From: Mobula hypostoma
Taxonomy: Eukaryota
Assembly (NCBI RefSeq): GCF_963921235.1
Contig: NC_086097.1
Location: forward strand, 106,580,001-106,644,000
Direction of reading: 5' to 3'
DNA length: 64,000 nt
In this document: one piece after another, positions 23,449 to 58,410 of the stretch
How the letters are laid out: each line of letters opens with the position of its first letter
How positions within the stretch are numbered: the stretch's first letter is position 1
Made by a program: the position numbers and the translations under genes
Notes under the pieces: generated by a model
The model's database searches: none
The model's input: the letters and a program-made list of their open reading frames with translations, nothing else
What the model was told of the DNA's origin: nothing

Positions 23449-25535
23449 AGAACCATAGAACATTACAGCACAGAAACAGGCCTTTTGGCCCTTCTTGGCT
23501 GTGCTGAACCATTTTTCTGCCTAGTCCCACTGGCCTGCACCTGGACCATATCCCTCCATACACCTCTCATCCATGTACCTGTCCAAGTTTTTCTTAATTG
23601 TTAAAACTGAGTCTGCATTTACCACTTCATCTGGCAGCTCATTCCACACCTTACCACTCTCTGTGTGAAGAAGTCCCCCACTAATGTTCCCTTCAAACGT
23701 TTCCCCCTTCACCCTTAACCCATGTCCTCTTTTTTTTTTCTCCCCTAGCCTCAGTGGAAAAAGCCTGCTCGCATTCACTCTATCTATACCCATCATAATT
23801 TTATATACCTCTATCAAATCTCCCCTCATTCTTCTAAGCTCCAGGGAATAAAGTCCCAACCTATTCAACCTTTCTCTGTAACTCAGTTTCTCCAGTCCCG
23901 GCAATATCCTTGTAAACCTTCTCTGCACTCTTTCAACCTTATTGTAATTTCCTTCCTGTAATTTGGTGACCAAAATTGAACACAATACTCCAAATTCAGC
24001 CTCACCAATGCCTTATACAACCTCACCATAACATTCCAACTCTTATACTCAATACTTTGATTTATAAAGGCCAATGTACCAAAAGCTCTCTTTACGACCC
24101 TATCTACCTGTGACGCCACTTTTAGGGAATTTTGTATCTGTATTCCCAGATCCCTCTGCACTCCTCAGTGCCCTACCATTTACCTTGTATGTTCTACCTT
24201 GATTTGTCCTTCCAAAGTGCAATACCTCACACTTGTCTGTATTAAACCCCATCTGCCATTTTTCAGCCCATTTTTCCAGCTAGTCCAAATCCCTCTGCAA
24301 GCTTTGAAAACCTTCCTTACTGTCCACTACACCTCCAATCTTTGTATCATCAGCAAATTTGCTGATCCAATTTACCACATTATCATCCAGATCACTGATA
24401 TAGATGACAAATAACAATGGACCCAGCACTGATCCCTGTGGCACACCACTAGTCACAAGCCTCCACTCAGAGAAGCAATACTCCACTACCACTCTCTGGC
24501 TTCTTCCATTGAACCAATGTCTAATCCAATTTCCTACCTCTCCACGCACCTAGCGACTGAATCCTCTGAACTAACCTCCCATGCGGGACCTTGTCAAAGG
24601 CCTTACTGAAGTCCATGTAGACAACATCCATTGCCTTCCCATCATCCACTTTCCTGGTAACCTCCTCGAAAAACTCTAATAGATTGGTCAAACATGACCT
24701 ACCATGCACAAAGCCATGTTGACTCTCCCTAATAAGTCCCTGTCTATCCAAATACTTGTAGATCTTTTAGTACTCCTTCCAATAATTTACCTACTTCCGA
24801 CGTCAAACTTACCGGCCTATAATTTCCCAGATTACTTTCAGAGCCTTTTTAAAATAATGGAACAACATGAGCTATCCTTTAATCCTACAGCACCTCACCC
24901 GTAGATACCAACATTTTAAATATATCTGCCAGGGTCCCTGCAATTTCAACACTAGTCTCCTTCAAGGTCCGAGGGAATACCCTGTCAGGTCCTGGGGATT
25001 TATCTACTCTGATTTGCCTCAAGAGAGCAAGCACCTCCTCCTCTTCAATCTGTACAGGTTCCATGACCTCACTACTTGTTTGCTTTATTTCCATAGACTC
25101 CATGCCAGTTTCCTTAATAAATACAGATGCAAAAAAAAATTTAAGATCTCCCCCATTTCTTTTGGTTCCATACATAGCCGACCACTCTGATCTTCAAGAG
25201 GACCAATTTTATCCCTTACTCTTAATATACCTGTAGAAGCTCTTTGGACTATTCTTCACCTCGACTGCCAAAGCAACCTCATGTCTTCTTTTAGCCCTCC
25301 TGATTTCTTTCTTAAGTACTTTTTTTGCACTTTTTATACTCCTCAAGTACCTTATTTGCTCCCTGTTTCTTATACATGTCATATATCTCTCTCTTCTTCT
25401 TTATCAGAGTTCCAATATCCCTTGAGAACCAAGGTTCCTTATTCTTATTCACTTTGCCTTTAATCCTGACAGAAACATACAAACTCTGCACTCTCAAAAT
25501 TTCTCCTTTGAAGGCCTCCCACTTACCAATCACAT
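23449..25535 (-). mobile_element. 5'-truncated CR1 LINE (same family as 43069-46517), several frameshifts and deletions
   Basis: [32 protein letters not shown]; 3' tail agaaccatagaa on the + strand. Confidence 0.95.
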
Positions 25536-25539
25536 TCTT

Positions 25540-40915: not shown

Positions 40916-43148
40916 AAGTAGGCAAATTATGCTTCTTGGGCACTTTTGTTTCAAAGTTGCATCCATAATGAACTAAAGTTGTTCACAGTATTTTAAAAAG
41001 ACTGCGTTGACCTCTATCAGGAAACTAAACATAAGAACAATTTGAAATTTGAAGAAATATTTCTGGAACAACGTAAGTGATGTGCTCATCTACATGAATG
41101 TAAAGTTATTCAAGAAAAGGTCAAAAATAAAATTCAATTAAAAATGCTAAGTAAAACGGCAACATTATGAATGATTGAAATTAGATTGTTATATTTTTAA
41201 ATCAGCTTAAAAACAACTCTGAAAGAAAACTAATATGGAACCAGATATTTTAAAATGGAAATAAAATTGGCTAAATAACAGGTTTGATGGACACTCCAGC
41301 TACTGTTCTTATTCAGCTATCCATTTTGATTCTGAACCATAAGTTTTGGCTTTGTCACAGAAGTTTGAACAGTTAGCAGATTTTTAGTTGTATTTGTAAT
41401 CTTCAAAAGATTTTTCCCACAATGCTATTCAATGATAAATATTAATATTAATAGTATCAAGGATATATACACATTTGCATCTCTCATGTAACCTCTGAAA
41501 ATTTGTTTTTAAAAGGTTCAATACATGATAGCCCAATTGCATCAGTCAGAATGAAGCAGGTCTATAAAATTATAAATGAACACATTCCCCCCACCCCACT
41601 CTACCCCTTCAGGATCAGGGTCTTTATGATGAGTTTCTTCAAACCACAACAAAAAAGGAAAAAAGCAACATTTAAATTCCTCTCACAATCCAGAATTTAC
41701 TTAACGACTGACTGCGCCTTGTGATAAACCAAATGATGATCCAGCAACATGTCTTTATCCATGGTTTGGTTAATTAAAGCCTGCTTGTTTGTTGAAAAGA
41801 TGATTAATATGCCAATGAAAATTGCATAATTGAATACAACAAACTCACGGAATCATAAAAGCGCATGTGTTTTTCCCCTTATGCTTAAGCTCAGAATTCA
41901 TTCTTCTGAAATGTGGGTTATTCTAAATTATGTCCCTGCAAAAAAAATCTAAAAAATGGTTTGTGCCACCATTTTGCAGTGATTTGCACAAACAACAGTA
42001 GTGTTATCAAAAGAATGGTTGAGTTATGAGGGAGATTGAAGCAATCTTATTCTGCTGTTAGAGATACTCAGGCATTTGTAAGTGACCTTGATCTGAAAGG
42101 GCTTGGAAAAAAAACAGCAGTAATAAGCAAAGACAAAAAAAAAATCAAGTCTTGGCTGGAATGAGTTTTTTTTTCCAAGTAACAATATGTATGAAACTTA
42201 AATTTGTGCAATAGTGCATCACAGAGCTACAATTTCCAATCCTATTTAGTGCATATAACTGGTGAAGATGCAGTACAAGTCGACCAATCTTTGGTTTCCC
42301 AGATAGTGTATGTTATATGCTTGGGGGTTCAATCAATGTTGCTTTGATCTCTGCTGGAACTATAATTATTTAACATTGTTACAAGGATTTCTATAATCCA
42401 TCCTACCATTAAATCCCTTTTACACCCTCATCTTCTGAAGCATAATCTGCATCTATACGCTTGGTTTGTCTGTTTAACTTGTTTCATCAGTCACCTCCTT
42501 CCCAGAACACCCATGTTGATGTAGTTTTAATGAAACAAGGAATTGCATGTAATGAGAGGAACTCTGCAGGTTTATGCCACTGTCGAGTGAGCTGCCCTCA
42601 ATTTTTGTTCTTCAAAATTAATAAGTTCATCCACCTCTAATTCAGTCATGATTTTGGAGTACAATGATCACAAGTAACAACGCATGTTTAACATTAAATC
42701 ATAGTTAGAAATATTAAGTTTGTTTTACCAAGAATCATAATATTTTGACCTATTGAGCAGTATAAAGGCAAAAATAGACTGTCATCCCGTGAAACATTTT
42801 CTTCAGAGCAAGACAAGTTTATTTAAAAGTATGTCTTGCTGCAGTCGTTAAAATGATTCTTTTATATCACAAAACATAAAGTTCATCACATTTTGTCCTA
42901 TTTTGTGCAATTTGATATATTGATCAGATTGTCAAATTTAGATAGTCAAAAATTGCACTAACAATATACAGTAATTCAATGAAACTGCAAAAGCAATGTA
43001 AAAGATTTACATTTGTCTGTTTAAGTCTCCAGACCCATCATTGACATTTTCTTTGTAACCACCACTTTAGAAACCATAGAAACCATAGAAACTACAGCAC
43101 AGAAACAGGCCTTTTGGCCCTTCTTAGCTGTGCCGAACCATTTTCTGC

Positions 43149-44780
43149 CTAGTCCCACTGACCTGCACACAGACCATATCCCTCCATACACCTCCCATCC
43201 ATGTATCTGTCCAATTTATTCCTAAATGTTACAAAAGAACCCGCATTTACCACCTCGTCTGGCAGCTCATTCCATACTCCCACCACTCTCTGTGTGAAGA
43301 AGCCCCCCCGAATGTTCCCTTTAAACTTTTCCCCCCTCACCCTTAACCCATGTCCTCTGGTTTTTTTCTCCCCTTGCCTCAGTGGAAAAAGCCTGCTTGC
43401 ATTCACTCTTTCTATACCCATCATAATTTTATATACCTCTATCAAATCTCCCCTCATTCTTCTACGCTCCAGGGAATAAAGTCCTAATCTATTCAACCTT
43501 TCTCTGTAACTGAGTTTCTCAAGGCCCGGCAACATCCTTGTAAACCTTCTCTGTACTCTTTCAACCTTATTTATATCCTTCCTGTAATTTGGTGACCAAA
43601 ACTGAACACAATACTCCAGATTCGACCTCACCAATGCCTTATACAACCTCATCATAACATTCCAGCTCTTATACTCAATACTTCGATTAATAAAGGCCAA
43701 TGTACCAAAAGCTCTCTTTACGATCCTATCTACCTGTGACGCCACTTTTAGGGAATTTTGTATCTGTATTCCCAGATCCCTCTGTTCCACTGCACTCCTC
43801 AGTGCCTTACCATTAACCCTGTATGTTCTACGTTGGTTTGTCCTTCCAACATGCAATACCTCACACTTGTCTATATTAAACTCCATCTGCCATTTTTCAG
43901 CCCATTTTTCCAGCTGGTCCAAGTCCCTCTGCAGGCTCTGAAAACCTTCCTCACTGTCTACTACACCTCCAATCTTTGTATCATCAGCAAACTTGCTGAT
44001 CCAATTTACCACATTATCATCCAGATCATTGATATAGATGACAAATAACAATAGACCCAGCACTGATCCCTGTCGCACACCACTAGTCACAGGCCTCCAC
44101 TTAGAGAAGCAATTCTCTACCACCACTCTCTGGCTTCTTCCATCGAGCCAATGTCTAATCCAATTTACCACCTCTCCATGTATACCTAGCCACTGAATTT
44201 TCCTAACTAACCTCCCATACGGGTCCTTGTCAAAGGCCTTACTGAAGTCCATGTAGACAATATCCACTGCCTTCCCTTCATCCACTTTCCTGGTAACCTC
44301 CTCGAAAACCTCCAACAGATTGGTCAAACATGACCTACCACGCACAAAACCATGTTGACTCTCCCTAATAAGCCCCTGTCTATCCAAATGCTTGTAGATT
44401 CTGTCTCTTAGTACTCCCTCCAATAACTTACCTACAACTGACGTTAAACTCACCGGCCTATAATTTCCCGGATTACTTTTCAATCCTTTTTTAAACAACG
44501 GAACAACATGAGCCACTCTCCAATCTTCCGGCACCTCACCCGTAGACAGCGACATTTTAAATATTTCTGCCAGGGCCCCCGCAATTTCAACACTAGTCTC
44601 CTTCAAGGTCCGAGGGAACACTCTGTCAGGTCCCGGGGATTTATCCACTTTAATTTTCCTCAAGACAGCAAGCACCTCCTCCTTTTCAATCAGTACAGTT
44701 TCCATGGTCTCACTACTTGATTCCCTCAATTCCATAGATTTCATGCCAGCTTCCTTAGTAAATACAGACGCAAAAAACCT
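43149..44780 (-). CDS. CR1 ORF2, C-terminal part: reverse transcriptase
   Basis: NYRPVSL, QHGF, DFSKAFD, GVRQGSVLG, FADD; 531 open codons in the ORF track. Confidence 0.92.
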   Translation of the reverse strand, partial: RFFASVFTKEAGMKSMELRESSSETMETVLIEKEEVLAVLRKIKVDKSPGPDRVFPRTLKETSVEIAGALAEIFKMSLSTGEVPEDWRVAHVVPLFKKGLKSNPGNYRPVSLTSVVGKLLEGVLRDRIYKHLDRQGLIRESQHGFVRGRSCLTNLLEVFEEVTRKVDEGKAVDIVYMDFSKAFDKDPYGRLVRKIQWLGIHGEVVNWIRHWLDGRSQRVVVENCFSKWRPVTSGVRQGSVLGLLLFVIYINDLDDNVVNWISKFADDTKIGGVVDSEEGFQSLQRDLDQLEKWAEKWQMEFNIDKCEVLHVGRTNQRRTYRVNGKALRSAVEQRDLGIQIQNSLKVASQVDRIVKRAFGTLAFINRSIEYKSWNVMMRLYKALVRSNLEYCVQFWSPNYRKDINKVERVQRRFTRMLPGLEKLSYRERLNRLGLYSLERRRMRGDLIEVYKIMMGIERVNASRLFPLRQGEKKTRGHGLRVRGEKFKGNIRGGFFTQRVVGVWNELPDEVVNAGSFVTFRNKLDRYMDGRCMEGYGLCAGQWD

Positions 44781-46089
44781 ATTTTAAGATCTCCCCCATT
44801 TCCTTTGGTTCCGCACAAAGCCGACCACTCTGATCTTCAAGAGGACCAATTTTATCCCTTACAATCCTTTTGCTCTTAATGTACTTGTAAAAGCTCTTTG
44901 GATTATCCTTCACTTTGACTGCCAAGGCAACCTCATGTCTTCTTTTAGCCCTCCTGATTTCTTTCTTAAGTATTTTCTTACACTTCTTATACTCCTCAAG
45001 CACCTGATTTACCCCCTGTTTCCTATACAGTTCATACAACTCCCTCTTTTTCTTTATCAGAGTTGCAATATCCCTTGAGAACCAAGGTTCCTTATTCCTA
45101 TTCAATTTGCCTTTAATCCTGACAGGAACATACAAACTCTGCACTCTGAAAATTTCCCCTTTGAAGGCTTCCCACCTACCAATCACATCTTTGCCAGAGA
45201 ACAACCTGTCCCAATCCACGCTTTTTAGATCCTTTCTCATTTCTTCAAATTTGGCCTTCTTCCAGTTCAGAACCTCAACCCTAGGACCAGATCTATCCTT
45301 GTCCATGATCAAATTGAAACTAATGGTGTTATGATCACTGGAACCAAAGTGCTCCCCTACACAGACTTCCGTCACTTGCCCTAATTCGTTACCTAACAAG
45401 AGATCCAATATTGCATCCCCTCTAGTTGGTCCCTCTATATATTGATTTAGAAAACTTTCCTGATCACATTTTACAAACTCTAAACCATCTAGACCCCTAA
45501 CAGTATGGGAATCCCAATCAATGTATGGAAAATTAAAATCCCCTACCACCACAACTTTATGTTTCCTGCAGTTGCCTGCTATCTCTCTGCAGATTTGCTC
45601 TTCCAAGTCTCGTTGCCTATTGGGTGGTCTGTAATACAATCCCACTAATGTGGCCATACCTTTCCTGTTTCTCAGCTCCACCCATAAGGACTCAGTAGAC
45701 AAGCCCTCTAATCTGTCCTGCCTGAGCACTGCTGTAATATTTTCCCTAACAAGCAATGCTACTCCCCCACCTTTCATTCCTCTGCCTCGATCACATCTGA
45801 AACATCGGAACCCTGGAATATTAAGCTGCCAGTCCTGCCCCTCCTGTAGCCAAGTTTCACTAATTGCTACAACATCATAATTCCACGTGTCAATCCACGC
45901 CCTCAACTCATCCGCCTTCCCCGCAATACTCCTAGCATTGAAATATATACACCTCAGAAGATTTTTACCACCACTCACAACCTTTCTATCGGCGGATTTG
46001 CTTAAACCTTCAATATCATTTATTTTCACCTCAGCCACACTGTCAGCTCTGGCACTCTGGTTCCCATCCCCCTGCAAATCTAGTTTAAA
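44779..46089 (-). CDS. CR1 ORF2, N-terminal part: AP-like endonuclease
   Basis: YFNARS, ISETW, YYRPP, GDFNF, ILDLLL, SDHN intact; frame ends just after a +1 insertion at 44782-44785. Confidence 0.9.
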   Translation of the reverse strand, partial: FKLDLQGDGNQSARADSVAEVKINDIEGLSKSADRKVVSGGKNLLRCIYFNARSIAGKADELRAWIDTWNYDVVAISETWLQEGQDWQLNIPGFRCFRCDRGRGMKGGGVALLVRENITAVLRQDRLEGLSTESLWVELRNRKGMATLVGLYYRPPNRQRDLEEQICREIAGNCRKHKVVVVGDFNFPYIDWDSHTVRGLDGLEFVKCDQESFLNQYIEGPTRGDAILDLLLGNELGQVTEVCVGEHFGSSDHNTISFNLIMDKDRSGPRVEVLNWKKAKFEEMRKDLKSVDWDRLFSGKDVIGRWEAFKGEIFRVQSLYVPVRIKGKLNRNKEPWFSRDIATLIKKKRELYELYRKQGVNQVLEEYKKCKKILKKEIRRAKRRHEVALAVKVKDNPKSFYKYIKSKRIVRDKIGPLEDQSGRLCAEPKEMGEILK

Positions 46090-46514
46090 GCCTCCCCAAT
46101 AGCACTAACAAACTTCCCTGAAAGGATATTGGTCCCCCTGTGGTTCAAGTGTAACCCGTCTCTCTTGTACAGGTCCCACCTGCCCCAGAAGAGGTCCCAA
46201 TGATCCTGAAATCTGAAACCCTGCCCCCTACACCAGTTCCTCAGCCACTTGTTCCTCTTCCAGAGCATCCTATTCCTACCCTCACTGGCACCTAGCACAG
46301 GTAGCAATCCTGAGATTACCACCCTCGAGGTCCTGCTTTTCAACTTCCTACCAAGCTCTCTATACTCACTGTCCAGGACCTCTTCACTCTTCCTTGCTAT
46401 GTCATTGGTACCGATGTGCACCACGACATCTGGCTGGTCACCCTCCCACTTCAGAATGTCATGCAATCGATCAGAGACATCCTTGACCCTGGCACCTGGG
46501 AGGCAACAAACCAT
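46080..46514 (-). CDS. CR1 ORF1, C-terminal SGNH/GDSL esterase domain (5'-truncated)
   Basis: CLPGA, VVVHIGTNDI, DGLHLN motifs. Confidence 0.85.
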   Translation of the reverse strand: MVCCLPGARVKDVSDRLHDILKWEGDQPDVVVHIGTNDIARKSEEVLDSEYRELGRKLKSRTSRVVISGLLPVLGASEGRNRMLWKRNKWLRNWCRGQGFRFQDHWDLFWGRWDLYKRDGLHLNHRGTNILSGKFVSAIGEALN

Positions 46515-46517
46515 CCT

Positions 46518-48421: not shown

Positions 48422-49411
48422 AAGTTTAGTCACATCCTCATGACGTTGAGATAATTCGCCAACTCTTCTTGCAAAACACAAAGCCCAATCCAGGTGTAAC
48501 AGGCAGTGACATAGCTCCTCAACACAGTAGGGGTCACACTCTGTTCCCCTGGTGCTACGTAGGCCAAACTATCCGGTGGTCTCCTAATTCTCTGAGACCT
48601 CCGCACGCACCCTCATCCAACCCTTCAGGTTCCGACACTACTGGGGATACTTCCGGTCTACCTGGTGAGGCCTCCCCCGATCTATCATTTGCGCCCACCT
48701 GCAACTCGGAGCCCTCTGTTCCATGATCAAACCTCGCTTCCTCCCCTGCAGAGTCCCGCTGCAACCCAGGCTGCCCACAGATAGCCCGCCCCCCCCCAAC
48801 TTCACCTGTCTCAATGGGACAAGGGCCGGGAGTCTCTTCCTCAATCAATGGGGAGTTAGCGAAAAGCAGCATATACCACACATCCAGGTCCTCATCCTCT
48901 GAATCAGTATCCCTTTCAGGGATGGGGGCCAGCCTAACCTCGCCTGTTGGGGGACCGGTAGTCACTCCGCGTGTCCGAAGAATCCTCTTCCTAAGTGTAG
49001 GCTCCAAGTCGGGCTCTGGGTCTACCTGCACCTCTTGACCCAGGGGCAACAGGTGGTTCCGATGGAGAATCTTGACAGGCCCAGTCCCATCTTCTGGTTT
49101 CACACAGAAAAGTGGTAGGTTTGGCATCTAACTCTCCACCACATAGGGTGCAGCCACCCAGCGGTCAGCCAACTTATGCTTTCCAGATAGCCCCAAATTC
49201 CTTATGAAGACTCTTGTCTCCCGGCAGGAGTTACGAGAACTTCATCTTTTGATCATACCTCCTCTTATTCCCTCAATTCTGCTTGGCAGCCGCAACTCCA
49301 ACTAACTCATAAGCCCTTTTCAGCTCTCTTCTTATGTCAGACACATACTTCAGATAAGTCTTCGGTAGGAAGTTACCCCTGTCAGTCCCAAAACAAAAGT
49401 CAATGAGCAAC

Positions 49412-49883
49412 ACACATCAAAGTTGCTGGTTGAACGCAGCAGGCCAAGCAGCATCTATAGGAAGAGGCGCAGTCGACGTTTCAGGCCGAGACCCTTCGTC
49501 AGGACTAACTGAAGGAAGAGTGAGTAAGGGATTTGAAAGCTGGAGGGGGAGGGGGAGATGCAAAATGATAGGAGAAGACAGGAGGGGGAGGGATAGAGCC
49601 GAGAGCTGGACAGGTGATAGGCAAAAGGGGATACGAGAGGATCATGGGACAGGAGGTCCGGGAAGAAAGACAAGGGGTGAGGGGGTTGACCCAGAGGATG
49701 GGCAAGAGGTATATTCAGAGGGACAGAGGGAGAAAAAGGAGAGTGAGAGAAAGAATGTGACGAAGGGTCTCGGCCTGAAACGTCGACTGCGCCTCTTCCT
49801 ATAGATGCTGCTTGGCCTGCTGCGTTCAACCAGCAACTTTGATTTGTGTTGCTTGAATTTCCAGCATCTGCAGAATTCCTGTT
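49412..49883 (-). mobile_element. Short Penelope-like insertion with an inverted terminal segment, inside the Gypsy integrase
   Basis: Homologous to 60379-60760; flanked by direct repeat gtcaatgagcaac (49399-49411, 49884-49896); 96-bp inverted arms. Confidence 0.88.
49471..49506 (-). ncRNA. Minimal type I hammerhead ribozyme (Penelope-associated)
   Basis: AGTC-CTGACGA-A-GGGT(CTCG)GCCT-GAAAC-GTC-GACT: core CUGANGA and GAAA, GUC cleavage triplet, stem I AGTC/GACT, palindromic ACGT in place of stem III. Confidence 0.75.
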
Positions 49884-52800
49884 GTCAATGAGCAACCTCG
49901 CTTTGTGCCCAAACATCAGATAATATGGCGAGTACCCAGTAGCTTCATTTCGTGTACAGTTGTAACTGTGAACCAGATGCCCAATATGTTGACTCTACTT
50001 GCTCTTCTTGCTGATCTCCAGGGTTCCAAGCATGTCTAGCAAGGTCCGATTAAACCTCTCTGGCTGGGAATCACTCAGCGGGTGATAGGGCATGGTCCTC
50101 GACTTCTCGACTCCAAGCATGCCCAGCAACTCATGGATGAGTCTGCTCCCGAATTCCCATCCCTGATCGCTATGTATTCATCTGCAGAGGCCATAATAAA
50201 CAAAATACTTCTCCCATAACACTTTTGCTGCTGTAGACGCCCTCTAGTCCTTGGTAGGAAAAGCATGAGCAAATCTGGCGTAGTGGTCTGTGATGACCGA
50301 GACATTCGCCGTGTTGCTGGCATTGGGTTCTATTGCCAGGTAATCCATACACACCAGGTCCAGAGGCCCCGCACTCTGCAGGTGGGAGAAGGGAGCTGCC
50401 CGCCTAGGCAGTGTCTTCCGCCGTATGTATCGAATGCACGACTTGCAGTATTCTTCAACCTTTGACTTCACCCGGAGCCAGTAGAACCGATCTCTGAGCA
50501 ATCCATCGGTCCTTTCCACCCCCAAATGTCCAGAATCATCATGAAGTGACTTCAACGCATTCCTCCGATACTTCTCCAGCAGAACCAGCTGGCAATGCCG
50601 AGGTCGGTCTGGGGGTGACATGACCCGGTATAAGATCTGGTTCTTCAACTCCAACCAAGGTCATTCTCGCAGTAATGGAGGTACCGACGCATGTTTTGCC
50701 TTCTCCGCCTGAGCCCTGTCTCCCTTTTCAACCACCACCCAAATGGTACCAATGCCCAGATCATCTCACTGAGCAGCTGCCACTTCCCCAGAACTCAATT
50801 CCGGCAGCTGATTGGTCTTCACAGCAGTCAGGTTACAATAAACTTGGGGGATGTTGTCATCAGGTGCCCCCAATTGGTCCACCACTCGATCCTGCCCCTC
50901 CTTTTCCTCTGCCTTCACGGTAATGGCAAACTGACTCATGGCCTTCACCCCCATGGCAGGAATGCTCTCCCACTCCTCGTCCCTGTCCAGTCCCTCATGC
51001 CCTCATTGGGAAAAAGCATCCTCATCAATGTTCCGGCTTCCCGGTCGGTATTTCAGCCTGAAATCATAGACAGACATCGCTGCCAACCACTGATGGCCTG
51101 TAGCATCCAGTTTTGCCGAGGTCAGGATATAAGTCAGAGGGTTGTTGTCCGTCCTTACCTCAAACTTGGCCCCGTAGAGGTAGTCACTCAGCTTATCCAC
51201 CACCGCCCATCTTAACGCCAGAAATTCCAACTTGTGTGTGGGATAGTTTTTCTCGGAGGGTGACAGACTCTGGCTGACAAACGCAACGTGTCTCAACCCG
51301 GTTCCCTGATCCTGATACAAGATGCCCCCCAAGCCTTCCCGACTGGCATCACTGTGAAGTGCATATGGCAATCGGGGGTTCACAAAAGCCAGCACCGGCA
51401 CTTGGGTCAGCAGCTCCTTCAACAACTGAAAGGCTTCTTCACAGTTTACATCCCACCTCAGTCCAAAGGGCTCCGACGGGTTAAGATACTCTCCACCCTC
51501 CTGTCCCTTTCTCCTCCTCATTTTCTTCCCCAAGGGAGGGTAACCACACAGAAGCTGATTCAACAGGCGACTCACTTTCACATAGCCCTTCACGAACCTC
51601 CGATAGTAACCACAGAACCCAAGGAATGAGCGCAGTGCGCTCACAGTCTGGGGTCTTGGCAAAGTGGAAACCACCTCTATCTTAGTTGGATCTGTAGCTA
51701 CTCCATTTCGTGAGACTATGTGCCCAACATAGCTAACAGATGTCTTGTAGAACTGGCACTTGTCCAGGGAAAGTTTTAACCCTTCAGCTTTCAGGCAGCC
51801 CAGCACCTTCAGCAGCCTCACTTCGTGCTCTTCCGAGGTGGATCCAAATACTATGAGGTCATTCAGATACACCAATACCTCAAGCAAATTCATATCCCCC
51901 ACCATCCTCTCCATGACTCATTAGGAGGTTGCAGGAGCTCCCGATATACCCTGGGGCATCCTTTCGAACTGGAAGAATCCCGGGGACATATAAATGCCAT
52001 CTTCTCTTTGTCAGCCTCACTCATAGCGACCTGGTAGTATCAACTCCTCAAATCCAGTACACTGAACCACTTCGCACCAGTCAAACAGGCCAGTGCGTCT
52101 TTGCTCCTCGGGTCCGTGTACTGGTCAGGGACGGTACGCCTATTCACAATCCTATAGTCCACACACATCCATACATTTCCATTCTTCTTCCAGGCCACTA
52201 CTATTGGGGATGCATAGGGGCTTTGGGACTCAGTGATGATCCCAGCTTCCTTCAACTTACACAAATGCTGCCGCATATCTTCCACGTCTGCAGGGGCCAG
52301 TCACCGTGACCTCTCTCTAAACGGGGTGTCCTTGGTCACCTGGATAGCATGACCAGTGCCCTTGCAACAACCCACATCAAACTCGTCAGTGGAAAAGACA
52401 CCTTCCAGCTTCAACATCTTCTCTACCAACCTCCTTTTCCACACCGCAGGCACCGGTGAGTCCCCAAAGTTGAATGACTCTGCTGTCAACTTTCCCCCCT
52501 TTTCCAATAGTTTCTCCCCAGCTTGTCTCACAGGGAAACTAGACATTACTGTCACCGGAAACAGGTGCGCCAGGGGCATCCCCCGCTTGAAGGTGACCTC
52601 TCTCTTCGTAGTGTCCCTAACAATCGCAGCCATACTGCTTGCCTGTACAATTGAGGGCTTCTGCAGCTCGGGCCTCACCAGTACCCCAGCAGGATATCCT
52701 GACTCCCCCTCAAGGTCTTCCGGTCTTCCAGAGCATCCACTGAGGGCCTCCCCCTCAGGCACTCTGGAAAATTTGGGGGTCCGCATCACTCTTGCTACTT

Positions 52801-53620
52801 ACCCGGGCTGGACCACCAGTGGCTTCGACTGGGTGAACCACACAGTCTCTCGTTTGAATTCGGTATCCGGCCCAATGCAGCCACGCACTTCCTCAAAAGC
52901 AGCACAGAACACCCGGTGCACAGAAAATGTCCCCAGAAAGATCTCGCCAGCCTTCTCCTTGCAGGCCCCCGTGAGTCTCCTCACAAGAGGGGTGCTGGTT
53001 CCCACCAGAAATGAAATGCCACCCTTCTCAACCGGGTCCAGACAAACCAGCACTAAGGTATCAAGGACCTCAGACACTCCCACATCAGCCTCCGAGAACT
53101 CCAGCTTCATGACAAATAACCATCATCTGGATAATCACCAGCACTGAGACACCAGATCTCCAGTGCCCTGAATGGTGTCAAATGTAGATGCTTCAGATAC
53201 CGGTTGTAAAACGAACAGTACAACAACGTGACCTCAGACCCAGTGTTGAGTATGGCTTTAGCATAAATACCCTATTTTCATAGCGACACACTGGAGCATG
53301 GTTCCTCTAAGCCTTCAGGAATAGGGTCTTTCACTTGCGAGGGTTCCTTGGTGCATTGCTGGGAATGTGTTCCCCCAGAGACTCCAGGCCATGCCCCCAC
53401 TGGATCTCCTCTAAGTTTCCTGACACCTCTCCTTGCTTAGGCACCCGGGGGCTCACTCTCCGAGGGGCTTCCTGCCACTCACATTCCCACCTGAGGTGGC
53501 CCTCTTCACCACAATTATAGCAGATGATACCGGCCGCCCTCCTTCTCACGGAACACCAGCCACCCGCAGCCCTCGGTGTAGTCCGTCCCCTTGGGGCGTC
53601 ATCCTCTCTACCCGTCCTAT

Positions 53621-54352: not shown

Positions 54353-57300
54353 ATCATAGAACATAGAATATAGAACATAGAAAAGTACAGCACAGTACAG
54401 GCCCTTCGGCCCACAGTGTTGTGCTAACCCTTAAAACCTGCCTCCCATATAACCCCCCACCTTAAATTCCTCCATATACCTGTCGAGTAATCTCTTCAAT
54501 TTCACTAGTATATTTGCCTCCACCACTGACTCAGGCAGTGCATTCCACGCACCAACCACTCTCTGAGTAAAAAACCGTCCTCTAATATCCCCCTTGAACT
54601 TCCCACCCCTTACCTTAAAGCCCTGTCCTCTTGTACTGAGCAGTGGTGCTCTGGGGAAGAGGCACTGGCTATCCACTCTATCTATTCCTCTTAATAGCTT
54701 GTATACCCTAATCATGTCTCCTTCTCTCCAAAGAATAAAGCCCCAGCTCCCTTAATCTCCCTTAATCTCTGATCGTAATGCATACTCTCTAAACCAGGCA
54801 GAATCCTGGTAAATCTCCTCTGTACCCTTTCCAATGCATCCATATCCTTCCTATAGTGAGGCGACCAGAACTGGACACAGTACTCCAAGTGTGGCCTAAC
54901 CAGAGTTTTACAGAGCTGCATCATTACCTCACAACTCTTAAACTCTATCCCTCAATTTATGAGAGCTAACACCCATAAGCTTTCTTAACTACCCTATCTA
55001 CCTGTGAGGCAACTTTCAGGGATCTGTGGACATGTATTCCCAGATCCCTCTGCTCCTCCACACTACCAAGTATCCTGCCATTTACTTTGTACTCTGCCTT
55101 GGAGTTTGTCCTTCCAAAGTGTATCACCTCACACTTCTCCAGGTAGACCTCCATCTGCCACTTCTCAGCCCACTTCTGCATCTTATCAATGTCTCTCTGC
55201 AATCTTCGACAATCCACTACACTATCCACAACACTACCAACCTTTGTGTCATCTGCAAACTTGCCAACCCACCCTTCTACCCCCACATCCAGGTTGTTAA
55301 TAAAAATCACGAAAAGTAGAGGTCCCACAACCGATCCTAGTGGGACACCACTAGTCACAACCCTCCAATCCAAATGTACTCTTTCCACCACGACCCTCTA
55401 CCTTCTGCAGGCAAGCCAATTCTGAATCCACCTGGCCAAACTTCTCTGGATCCCATGCCTTCTGACTTTCTGAATAAGCCTACCATGTGGAACCTTGTCA
55501 AATGACTTACTAAAATCCATGTAGATCACATCCACTGCACTACCCTCACCTATATGCCTGGTCACCTCTTCAAGGAACTCTATCAGGCTTGTTAGACACA
55601 ATCTGCCCTTCATAAAGCCATGCTGACTGTCCCAGATCAGACCATGATTCTCTAAATGCCCATAGATCCAAGAACCTTTTCCAACAGCTTTCCTACCACA
55701 GACATAAGGTTCACTGGTCTATAATTACCCGGACTATCCCTGCTACGTTTTTTCAACAAAGGGACAACATTCGCCTCCCTCTAATCCTCCGGTATCATTC
55801 CCGTGGACAACAAGGACATAAAGATCCTAGCCAGAGGCTCAGCAATCTCTTCCCTCGCCTCATGGAGCAGCCTGGGGAATATTCCGTCAGACCCCGGGGA
55901 CTTAATCATCCTAACATATTTTAACAACTCCAACACCTCCTCTCCCTTAATATCAACATTCTACAAAACATCAACCTCACTCATATTGTCCTCACCGTCA
56001 TCAAGTTCCCTCTCATCGGTGAATACCGAAGAGAAGTATTCATTGAGGACCTCGCTCACTTCCACAGCCTCCAGGCACATCTTCCCACTTTTATCTCTAA
56101 TTGATCCTACCTTCACTCCTGTCATCCTTTTGTTCTTCACATAATTGAAGAATGCCTTGGGGTTTTCCTTTACCCTACTCACCAATGCCTTCTCATGCCC
56201 CCTTCTTGCTCTCCTCAGCCACTTCTTAAGCTCCTTTCTTGCTACTCTATATTCCTCAATAGACCCATCTGATCCTTACTTCCTAAACCTCATGCATGCT
56301 GCCTTCTTCCACCCGACTAGATTTTCACCTCACTTGTCACACATGGCTCCTTCACCCTACCATTCTTTATCTTCCTCACCAAGACAAATTTATCTCTAAC
56401 ATCCTGCACGAGATCCCTAAACATCGACCACATGTCCCTGCAAAAACATCATCCCAATTCACACCTGCAAGTTCTAGCGTTATAGCCTCATAATTTGCCA
56501 TTCCCCAATTAAACATTTCTCTGTCCTGATTCTATCCTTTTCCATGATAATGCTAAAGGCCAGGGAGCAGTGGTCACTGTCCCCCAGATGCTCACCCACT
56601 GAGAGATCTGTGACCTGACCCAGTTCGTTACCTAATACTAGATCTAATATGGCATTCCCCCTAGTTAGCCTGTTAACATACTGTGACAGGAATCCGTCCT
56701 GGACACACTTAACAAACGTTGCCCCGTCTAAACCATTGGAACTAATCAGGTGCCAATCAATATTTGAGAAGTTAAAGTCACCCATGATAACAACCCTGTT
56801 ATTTTTGCACCTTTCCAAAATCTGCCTCCCAATCTGCTCCTCAGTATCTCTCCTGCTACCAGGGGACGTACAGAATATTCCCAATAGAGTAACTGCTCCC
56901 TTCCTGTTCCTAATTTCCACCCATACTGAATCAAAGGAGGATCCTGCTATATTACCCACCTTTTCTGCAGCTGTAATAGTATCCCTGACCAGTAATGCCC
57001 TCCCCTTCCCCCCCCCATCCCTTTTAAAGCACTGAAATCCAGGAATATTGAGAATCCATTCCTGCCCTGGTGCCAGCCAAGTCTCTGTAATGGCCACATA
57101 TGTATCCAAGCTCTCAGTTCATCATCTTTGTTCCTGATGCTTCTTGCATTGAAGTACTCGCACTTTAGCCCTTCTACCTTGCTACCTTTACACCCTTTAT
57201 TCTGCTTCTCTTTCCTCAAAGCCTCTCTATATGTCAGATCTGGCTTTACTCCATGAACTTCTTCAACTGCTCTATCGCTCCAGCTCCCATCCCCCTTGCA

Positions 57301-58410
57301 AATTAGTTTAAACCCTCCTGAACCATGCTAACAAACCTACCTGCAAGGATATTGCTCCCCCTCGAGTTCAGGTGCAACCCATCCAATCTGTACAGGTCAT
57401 AACTTCCCGAGAAGAGATCCCAATGATTCAAAAATCTAAAACCCTGCCTCCTGCACCAACTCCTCAGCCACGCATCCAACTGCCACTTCCTCCAATTCTT
57501 ATCATCACTGTCACGTAGCACTGGTAGCAATCCTGAGAACACCACCCTTGAGGTCCTGTTCTTCAGCCTTCTGCCTAGTTCCCGAAACTCACACTTCAGG
57601 ACCTCATCCCTCTTCCTGCCTATGTTGTTGGTACCAACATGTATCATTGTTTCTGGTTGTTTTCCCTCTCATACCAGGATATCGTGCACCCGGTCAGAAA
57701 CATCCCGGACCCTAGCACCCGGGAGGCAACAAATCATGCGGGTGTCCTTCTCACGTCCACAAAATCTCCTGTCTGCTCCCCTGACTATAGGGTCCCTAAT
57801 GACGGCAGCTCTCCTCTTCTCCATTCCACCCTTCTGCACCACAGGGTCAGACTCACCATGGCTCACCCCGGTCGGTCATCCCTGCCAACAGTATCCAGGA
57901 CAGTTACCTATTATTCAGGGGAATGGCTACAGGGGTGCTCTGCACTACCTGTCTACTCACCTTCGCTTTCCCCCCTCTGACTGTCACCCAACGACCTGCT
58001 TCCAGCAGTCTAACTGTGACTACATCCCTGAAGCTCTCATCTGTGACTGTCTCATTCTCCCTTATGAGTTGAAGGTCATCCAGCTTCTGCTCCAGATTCC
58101 TTACACAGTCTTCCATATCGACCAGCCACATGCACTTCTGGCAGATGTGACTCTGCGGGAGAGGGGAGTTCCCCCAAGACTGCCACATTTCACATAAGAG
58201 GCACATCACCGTCTCAGGAGGAATTGTAAAGCCTAAGTGGGAGCAAGCTCGTCCTCCGCCTCTTCTCGGCGAAGCCTGTCGAGTCAAAGCCTCAAAGCTC
58301 CACTCCTTCACTGGCCGCTCCGCTTGAGCTGCCCCTCTATTTATTTGTTTGAGCTTTTCAAACTGCTTAGTCACCTAACCTCGATTGCCCAATCAGCTAC
58401 TTTCGGCTGA
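54353..58410 (-). mobile_element. Near-full-length decayed CR1 LINE (second family)
   Basis: 5' UTR, ORF1, APE (YFNARS, ITETW, GDFNF, SDH), RT (DFSKSFDKVPH, FADD) and (TTCTATR)n tail; many frameshifts. Confidence 0.95.
57303..58210 (-). pseudogene. CR1 ORF1 (zinc finger, coiled coil, SGNH esterase), disrupted
   Basis: CLLCEMW...HICQKC; LEQKLDDLQLIRE; AAVIRDPIVRG (decayed GDS), HVGTNNI, DGLHLN. Confidence 0.85.

Follow-up and report, generated by a model that had tools for sequence, protein, structure and literature searches.

How is the second open reading frame of a CR1 retrotransposon translated when it overlaps the end of the first one and offers no start codon nearby? The question is raised by a CR1 copy in the 64-kb window, that is, the whole stretch of 64,000 nucleotides analysed here. 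ORF1 of this copy ends on the minus strand with GCT TTA AAC TAG and thus contains the heptamer TTTAAAC. The sequence-only reading of the window had proposed that ribosomes shift at this heptamer and make an ORF1(esterase)-APE-RT fusion. The comparative data support this proposal by the fixation of synonymous sites, by the constant -1 frame and by the kept spacer, and we estimate a probability of about 0.78 that programmed -1 frameshifting joins CR1 ORF1 and ORF2 as a fusion. The features of the window are collected in Table 1.

Table 1. Retroelements of the window and parts of the CR1 junction
Feature	Position	Strand	Remark
ORF1 3' part, SGNH/GDSL esterase	46080..46517	-	Pfam PF13472, E 3e-12
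ORF2, APE endonuclease and reverse transcriptase	43149..46089	-	Pfam PF03372, PF00078
Short 3' UTR with tandem 9-nt repeat tail	43068..43148	-	read from sequence
Slippery heptamer U_UUA_AAC	46089-46083	-	X_XXY_YYZ phase, read in 0 frame
ORF1 stop	46080..46082	-	TAG in window copy; TAA or TAG in relatives
G-tract GGGGGATGGG, GGGGG-NN-GGG	46063..46072	-	begins 10 nt past heptamer; candidate stimulator (putative)
AUG-free linker, heptamer to endonuclease motif YFNARS	45946..46082	-	-1 frame
Second CR1 junction, divergent family	57286..57312	-	GGT TTA AAC TAA, 10-nt spacer, GGGGGATGGG
CR1 copy, nearly full-length, broken	54449-58374	-	includes ORF1 zinc-finger/coiled-coil part
CR1 copy, 5'-truncated, without junction	23521-25539	-	window
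Decayed LTR-type (Gypsy-like) retroelement	48555-53147	-	RT and RNase H matches 51006-51917; integrase-like ORF pieces near 49450-50180

The element is an esterase-type CR1, as it has an SGNH esterase in ORF1 (PF13472 above the cut-off), APE and RT in ORF2, and a tail of short repeats (tandem 9-nt units at 43092-43068) without poly(A). The available parts of PMC13343379 and PMC3905857 describe the canonical vertebrate CR1 with the same esterase ORF1, APE-RT ORF2, short 3' UTR with repeat tail and frequent 5' truncation. The window copy belongs to a young CR1 family, its best 40 matches being 98-100% identical, but it is dead. It is 5'-truncated at about 46517, the point where 24 of 29 sister copies cease to resemble it, and one extra base near 44785, compared with 28 of 29 sister copies, breaks its ORF2. 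Named homologs come from rays, skates and sharks.

At the junction itself the sequence-only reading was accurate in several respects. The heptamer stands in X_XXY_YYZ phase right before the stop, the G-tract starts 10 nt after it behind the spacer TAGATTTGCA, and the first AUG of ORF2, placed about 100 codons on, is codon 104 (45777), past the endonuclease motifs YFNARS (codon 48) and ISETW (codon 75). The -1 frame has no stop between 46104 and 44779, and a TAG closes it five codons before the heptamer. It does run open into the endonuclease, as had been described, but the Phe/Leu-Lys given for the slip has to be replaced by Leu-Asn, since tandem slippage would yield Leu-Asn, after which the product follows the -1 frame. 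The description of ORF2 as AUG-less holds for the family of the window copy, where the first Met is codon 104 in 29 of 30 copies and codon 67 in one, but some bird and ray CR1 families carry an AUG at the junction; at the position of the bird-type ATG the window copy has an in-frame TTG. The one other junction in the window belongs to a CR1 which shares only 65% protein identity in ORF1 and about 51-56% in the endonuclease with the first; heptamer and spacing are the same and the stop is TAA. In the window by itself, the frequency of the 10-mer does not exceed chance (7 matches at one mismatch or fewer versus 6.3 expected), so the case rests on conservation.

For the analysis of conservation we grouped the sequences by hand into 24 lineages (16 from the own genome, one sturgeon-type and seven bird-type metagenome loci), as automatic clustering was over-split by truncated copies. 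Synonymous sites were compared in the 19 lineages with a readable ORF1 end. The residue before the Leu varies (A, G, S, T, C, D, H) while its codon always ends in T. Among the four-fold degenerate codons at this position the third base is T in 14 of 14, against a background of 152/687 (22%), and among 32 four-fold columns this is the sole one with 100%; the other 31 reach at most 88%. The Leu codon is TTA in 18 of the 19 lineages (background 22/205, 11%) and the Asn codon is AAC in all 19 (31/79, 39%). We note that the lineages are related and that their representatives were preferentially copies with the exact heptamer, so these are not independent trials. Free variation of the heptamer at synonymous sites, which the sequence-only reading had set against its own proposal, is not what is found: the heptamer is fixed, down to the third base of the codon before Leu, and is conserved more strongly than coding requires. 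The 10-nt spacer is kept as well, both in the genome pattern count and in 23 hand-picked lineage representatives, which have G at +11 to +15 in 21-23 cases and at +18 to +20 in 19-21.

Genome-wide the pattern TTTAAACTAR-N7-GGGGG has 22,141 matches and its reversed control has 8. With a non-T first heptamer base the same pattern occurs 1,418 times, and with TGA as the ORF1 stop 198 times, scattered. The listed places of both variants spread across many families, as expected for decay after insertion, bar one repeat (ATTAAACTAAGGGA). This recurring repeat was considered as a non-U counter-example and rejected, since 8 of 8 examined copies are not CR1 junctions. The G_GGA_AAC variant is not enriched in the own genome (17 matches, 61 in the control). 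Because such counts select on the motif, we resampled with anchors independent of it. Of 19,502 places that match the upstream DGLHLN codons, the first 90 contain the exact heptamer in 74 cases, one mismatch in 10 and more in 6; 61 of the exact heptamers are in phase with the anchor and 13 are offset by intervening indels. Thirty loci chosen by the endonuclease motif, a set overlapping the former in part, gave 20 exact heptamers, 4 with one mismatch and 6 without junction (the last two counts by eye). All sampled copies come from the start of one contig.

The frame was analysed at 94 junctions, namely 84 sampled copies within one mismatch, the two window copies and the eight metagenome loci. 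An endonuclease motif is recognisable at 63 of them, with no match at 31. ORF2 lies in the -1 frame at 49 of the 63, in 40 of these without a stop, and is off frame at 14, of which 13 contain stops. Thus intact relatives do not have ORF2 in other frames, a finding that would have spoken against frameshifting; every lineage with an intact linker uses -1. The in-frame linkers have 14 different lengths (99-324 nt) and no Met common to them, and those of the main copies in the four largest own-genome families lack Met altogether. As the length changes only by threes and the linker is open from the heptamer, it is most simply translated from there. In most copies the -1 frame is closed 1-5 codons upstream of the heptamer, so F-K-L cannot owe its conservation to being the first residues of an ORF2 that is initiated on its own.

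The junction is also kept in 8 of 8 CR1-type metagenome loci showing it (7 bird-type, 1 sturgeon-type). On the protein level, LN is the end of 29 of the 31 fish-type ORF1 proteins that were aligned (39 found) and of 95 of the 120 listed bird-type ones (252 found), and among the named ORF1s with this end are those of turtle, snake, monitor lizard, chimaera and coelacanth. Of 23 matches among the consensus sequences in the supplement of PMC13343379, 17 are junction-like by reading, 2 fall within 5' regions and 4 within L2/Rex1 cells; the search covered the first 400 letters per consensus and selected on the motif, so it shows range only. The 17 junction-like cells come from alligator, crocodile, bowfin, bullfrog, chimaera, coelacanth, rays, sharks and one halosaur. 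We conclude that the junction signal is real, family-wide and very old.

More distant esterase ORF1s were clustered at 50% identity. Of 150 representatives 115 reach the esterase end, and 54 of these end in LN, 10 in GN and 3 in KN, the dipeptides expected, at protein level only, of U_UUA_AAC, G_GGA_AAC and A_AAA_AAC. In total 69 of the 115 end in a dipeptide able to spell X_XXY_YYZ, compared with 5% for internal dipeptides; 46 of the 61 non-LN proteins have no slippery-compatible end. One clade of 26 in the esterase tree (quick method) mixes GN, KN, LN and FF-x ends, which hints at block changes of the heptamer. Ends in QGN, PGN, SKN or FF-x are seen in P0204, P0206, P0208, P0219, P0245, P0261, P0290, P0228, P0246 and relatives, and for these we predict G_GGA_AAC, A_AAA_AAC or U_UUU_UUY. 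DNA for the GN- and KN-ending ORF1s was not found in viral contigs, in plasmids or by a longer-protein search; genome contigs gave bacterial esterases only and the protein atlas only generic eukaryotic esterase clusters. The database also holds ORF1-ORF2 fusion proteins (P0016, P0026, P0028). They look like indel copies and were not counted as support. Furthermore, the gene models P0007, P0026 and P0039, which bear the names of host genes (ribosomal protein S24, hydroxyacid oxidase 2 and BRMS1-like isoforms), contain CR1 ORF1 sequence and are probably annotation artefacts or exonised copies.

The junction has the heptamer in phase and downstream an open -1 ORF without a conserved start, although some families do have an AUG, and in this it resembles programmed -1 frameshift sites. 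It does not fit the structure-stimulated class. The sequence-only reading had seen no convincing downstream pseudoknot, and the wider search agrees: the 23 representatives share no conserved local structure (folding z -2.5 to +2.2, below -2 in 2 of 23, with and without G-quadruplex terms), and no stem-loop or pseudoknot was found 5-9 nt downstream, where there are too few C for conserved stems (pseudoknots being judged without explicit folding). In 16 lineages, a duplex scan reaching as far as 3 kb downstream and 400 nt upstream gave no common long-range partner for the G-tract. The arterivirus PRRSV offers another model. Its nsp2 -2/-1 frameshift is stimulated by nsp1beta/PCBP on a C-rich linear motif, which functions at a 10-nt spacer (range 9-11), according to the available part of PMC4937337. 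CR1 shares the two short homopolymer patches and the spacer; it differs from PRRSV as its patches are G-rich, its heptamer is another one and it presents a candidate motif alone, whereas the trans-acting factor is known for PRRSV. Natural G-quadruplex stimulators were not then known, as stated in the available part of a 2016 review. We tentatively suggest, at a little short of even odds, that ribosomes might pause at the junction by slow termination together with a protein bound to the G-tract, and not at a stem-loop or pseudoknot. In several consensus cells of the PMC13343379 supplement (bowfin, bullfrog, coelacanth, a halosaur, two dogfish families) the G-tract is missing or differently spaced. 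Two dogfish CR1 5' regions in the same supplement (rows 891 and 896) read GTGAG, a polypyrimidine stretch, TAG and then TTTAAACTA, a pattern that resembles a small intron upstream of ORF1.

The alternative with most in its favour is termination-reinitiation as in L1 and SART1, in which a separate ORF2p would start from an AUG or near-cognate codon and the motif would hold the 40S subunit. Both precedents (PMC5972666, available part) share with CR1 the bicistronic LINE RNA and a low ORF2 output. An in-frame ATG is found four codons past the Phe codon of the heptamer in 4 of 7 bird-type loci, one own-genome family (L032 and similar, G000:C1:183223-183244) even has TAATG at the ORF1 stop, with an in-frame AUG that shares bases with the stop as in SART1 and with the heptamer kept, and other families have TTG, GTG or ACG at the equivalent codon. 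In still other lineages, however, this codon is TGG, TGC, TCG or AGT, so that a start at or near the stop is not conserved. The stop is TAA or TAG and not TGA (22,141 versus 198), though TGA would provide an in-frame CTG without a cost to either frame. Reinitiation gives no reason to expect an in-phase X_XXY_YYZ heptamer before the stop, or a -1 frame that is constant from the heptamer on. The ORFs of CR1 overlap at the heptamer, whereas those of L1 are separated by a 63-nt spacer; both L1 and SART1 yield a separate ORF2p. Reinitiation is in our view unlikely. Still less probable is a use of both routes, in which ancestral frameshifting is supplemented by reinitiation in the AUG lineages, or the fusion is made and then cut. 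The heptamer is indeed retained alongside the AUG in L092, L093, L094 and L100, and the linker is long, variable and charged, but the element encodes no protease (in the Pfam search, esterase, APE and RT were the only domains). The motif might also be kept for a role outside translation (internal promoter, signal for splicing or RNA processing, RNA protein site) or act by polymerase slippage; in favour of this are TTTAAACTA in the two dogfish 5' regions and the fact that G-runs are common RNA-protein sites. It is similarly improbable, since it leaves the codon phase unexplained, TAA families have no AG and thus no fixed splice acceptor, and three-base runs are too short for slippage. The assembled contigs of four runs (one on record as RNA, the RNA status being mostly guessed) are a weak test, in which no indel or intron-like joint was seen.

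We suggest that frameshifting at the CR1 junction would proceed as follows. A minority of ribosomes would slip one base back at U_UUA_AAC, and tRNA-Leu and tRNA-Asn could re-pair on UUU and AAA. Most ribosomes would end at the adjacent UAG or UAA, and this might fix the ratio of ORF1p to fusion as in Gag/Gag-Pol. In this way the endonuclease/reverse transcriptase would extend the esterase ORF1 protein at its C-terminus. A stop right after the heptamer is also found in RSV gag-pol. U_UUA_AAC is among the most shift-prone heptamers (PMC5009743, available part). It is the heptamer of IBV, and in coronavirus ORF1a/1b as in retroviral gag-pol a structural ORF is followed by a polymerase ORF in the -1 frame; CR1 differs from these viruses by having no stem-loop or pseudoknot 5-9 nt downstream, by being a non-LTR element without protease and by the directly adjacent stop (PMC5009743, same part). 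A point against the fusion is that CR1 lineages without ORF1 exist (PMC13343379, available part), so ORF2p is able to work without the esterase.

A report on CR1 frameshifting was not found in the literature searched, and key older CR1 and LINE papers fall outside that search. Where ORFs overlap, early LINE papers often proposed frameshifting, so it is plausible that the idea has been mentioned in passing for CR1 before. The word frameshift is absent from the main text of PMC13343379 and PMC3905857, which does not describe the junction signal, and CR1 is unmentioned in the searched part of PMC5009743. Whereas -1 frameshifting is known from viruses, the CR1 junction signal would be a case from a LINE.

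The related L2-like esterase elements L098, L121, L101, L104 and L128 (also L105, L108 and L122) have no heptamer at the ORF1 end. In L098, L121, L101 and L104 the endonuclease follows in the ORF1 frame after a single TGA, 72-90 codons on and without a stop; L098 and L121 have no Met in between, and L128 is similar but has one stop. The base after the TGA is C in 7 of the 8 elements. The arrangement resembles UGA readthrough, by which the same fusion would arise. It is a speculative and on balance rather doubtful generalisation that CR1, which dominates among the LINEs of most vertebrates, produces a Gag-Pol-like RT fusion by structure-free -1 frameshifting with an adjacent stop and a protein-bound G-tract, that invertebrate-type relatives swap heptamers and that the sister esterase L2 elements reach the fusion by UGA readthrough.

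Translation of LINE ORF2 is currently modelled on L1 reinitiation, which yields free ORF2p. If frameshifting operates in CR1, the enzyme would instead be tethered at a fixed ratio to a self-associating, lipid-binding ORF1 protein, as in retroviruses. ORF2 annotations starting at an internal AUG would then be wrong, and attempts to drive CR1 from a start in ORF2 only might fail for lack of the fusion. Finally, the CR1 junction would be a natural and very old -1 signal without RNA structure, with the G-tract as a possible stimulator.
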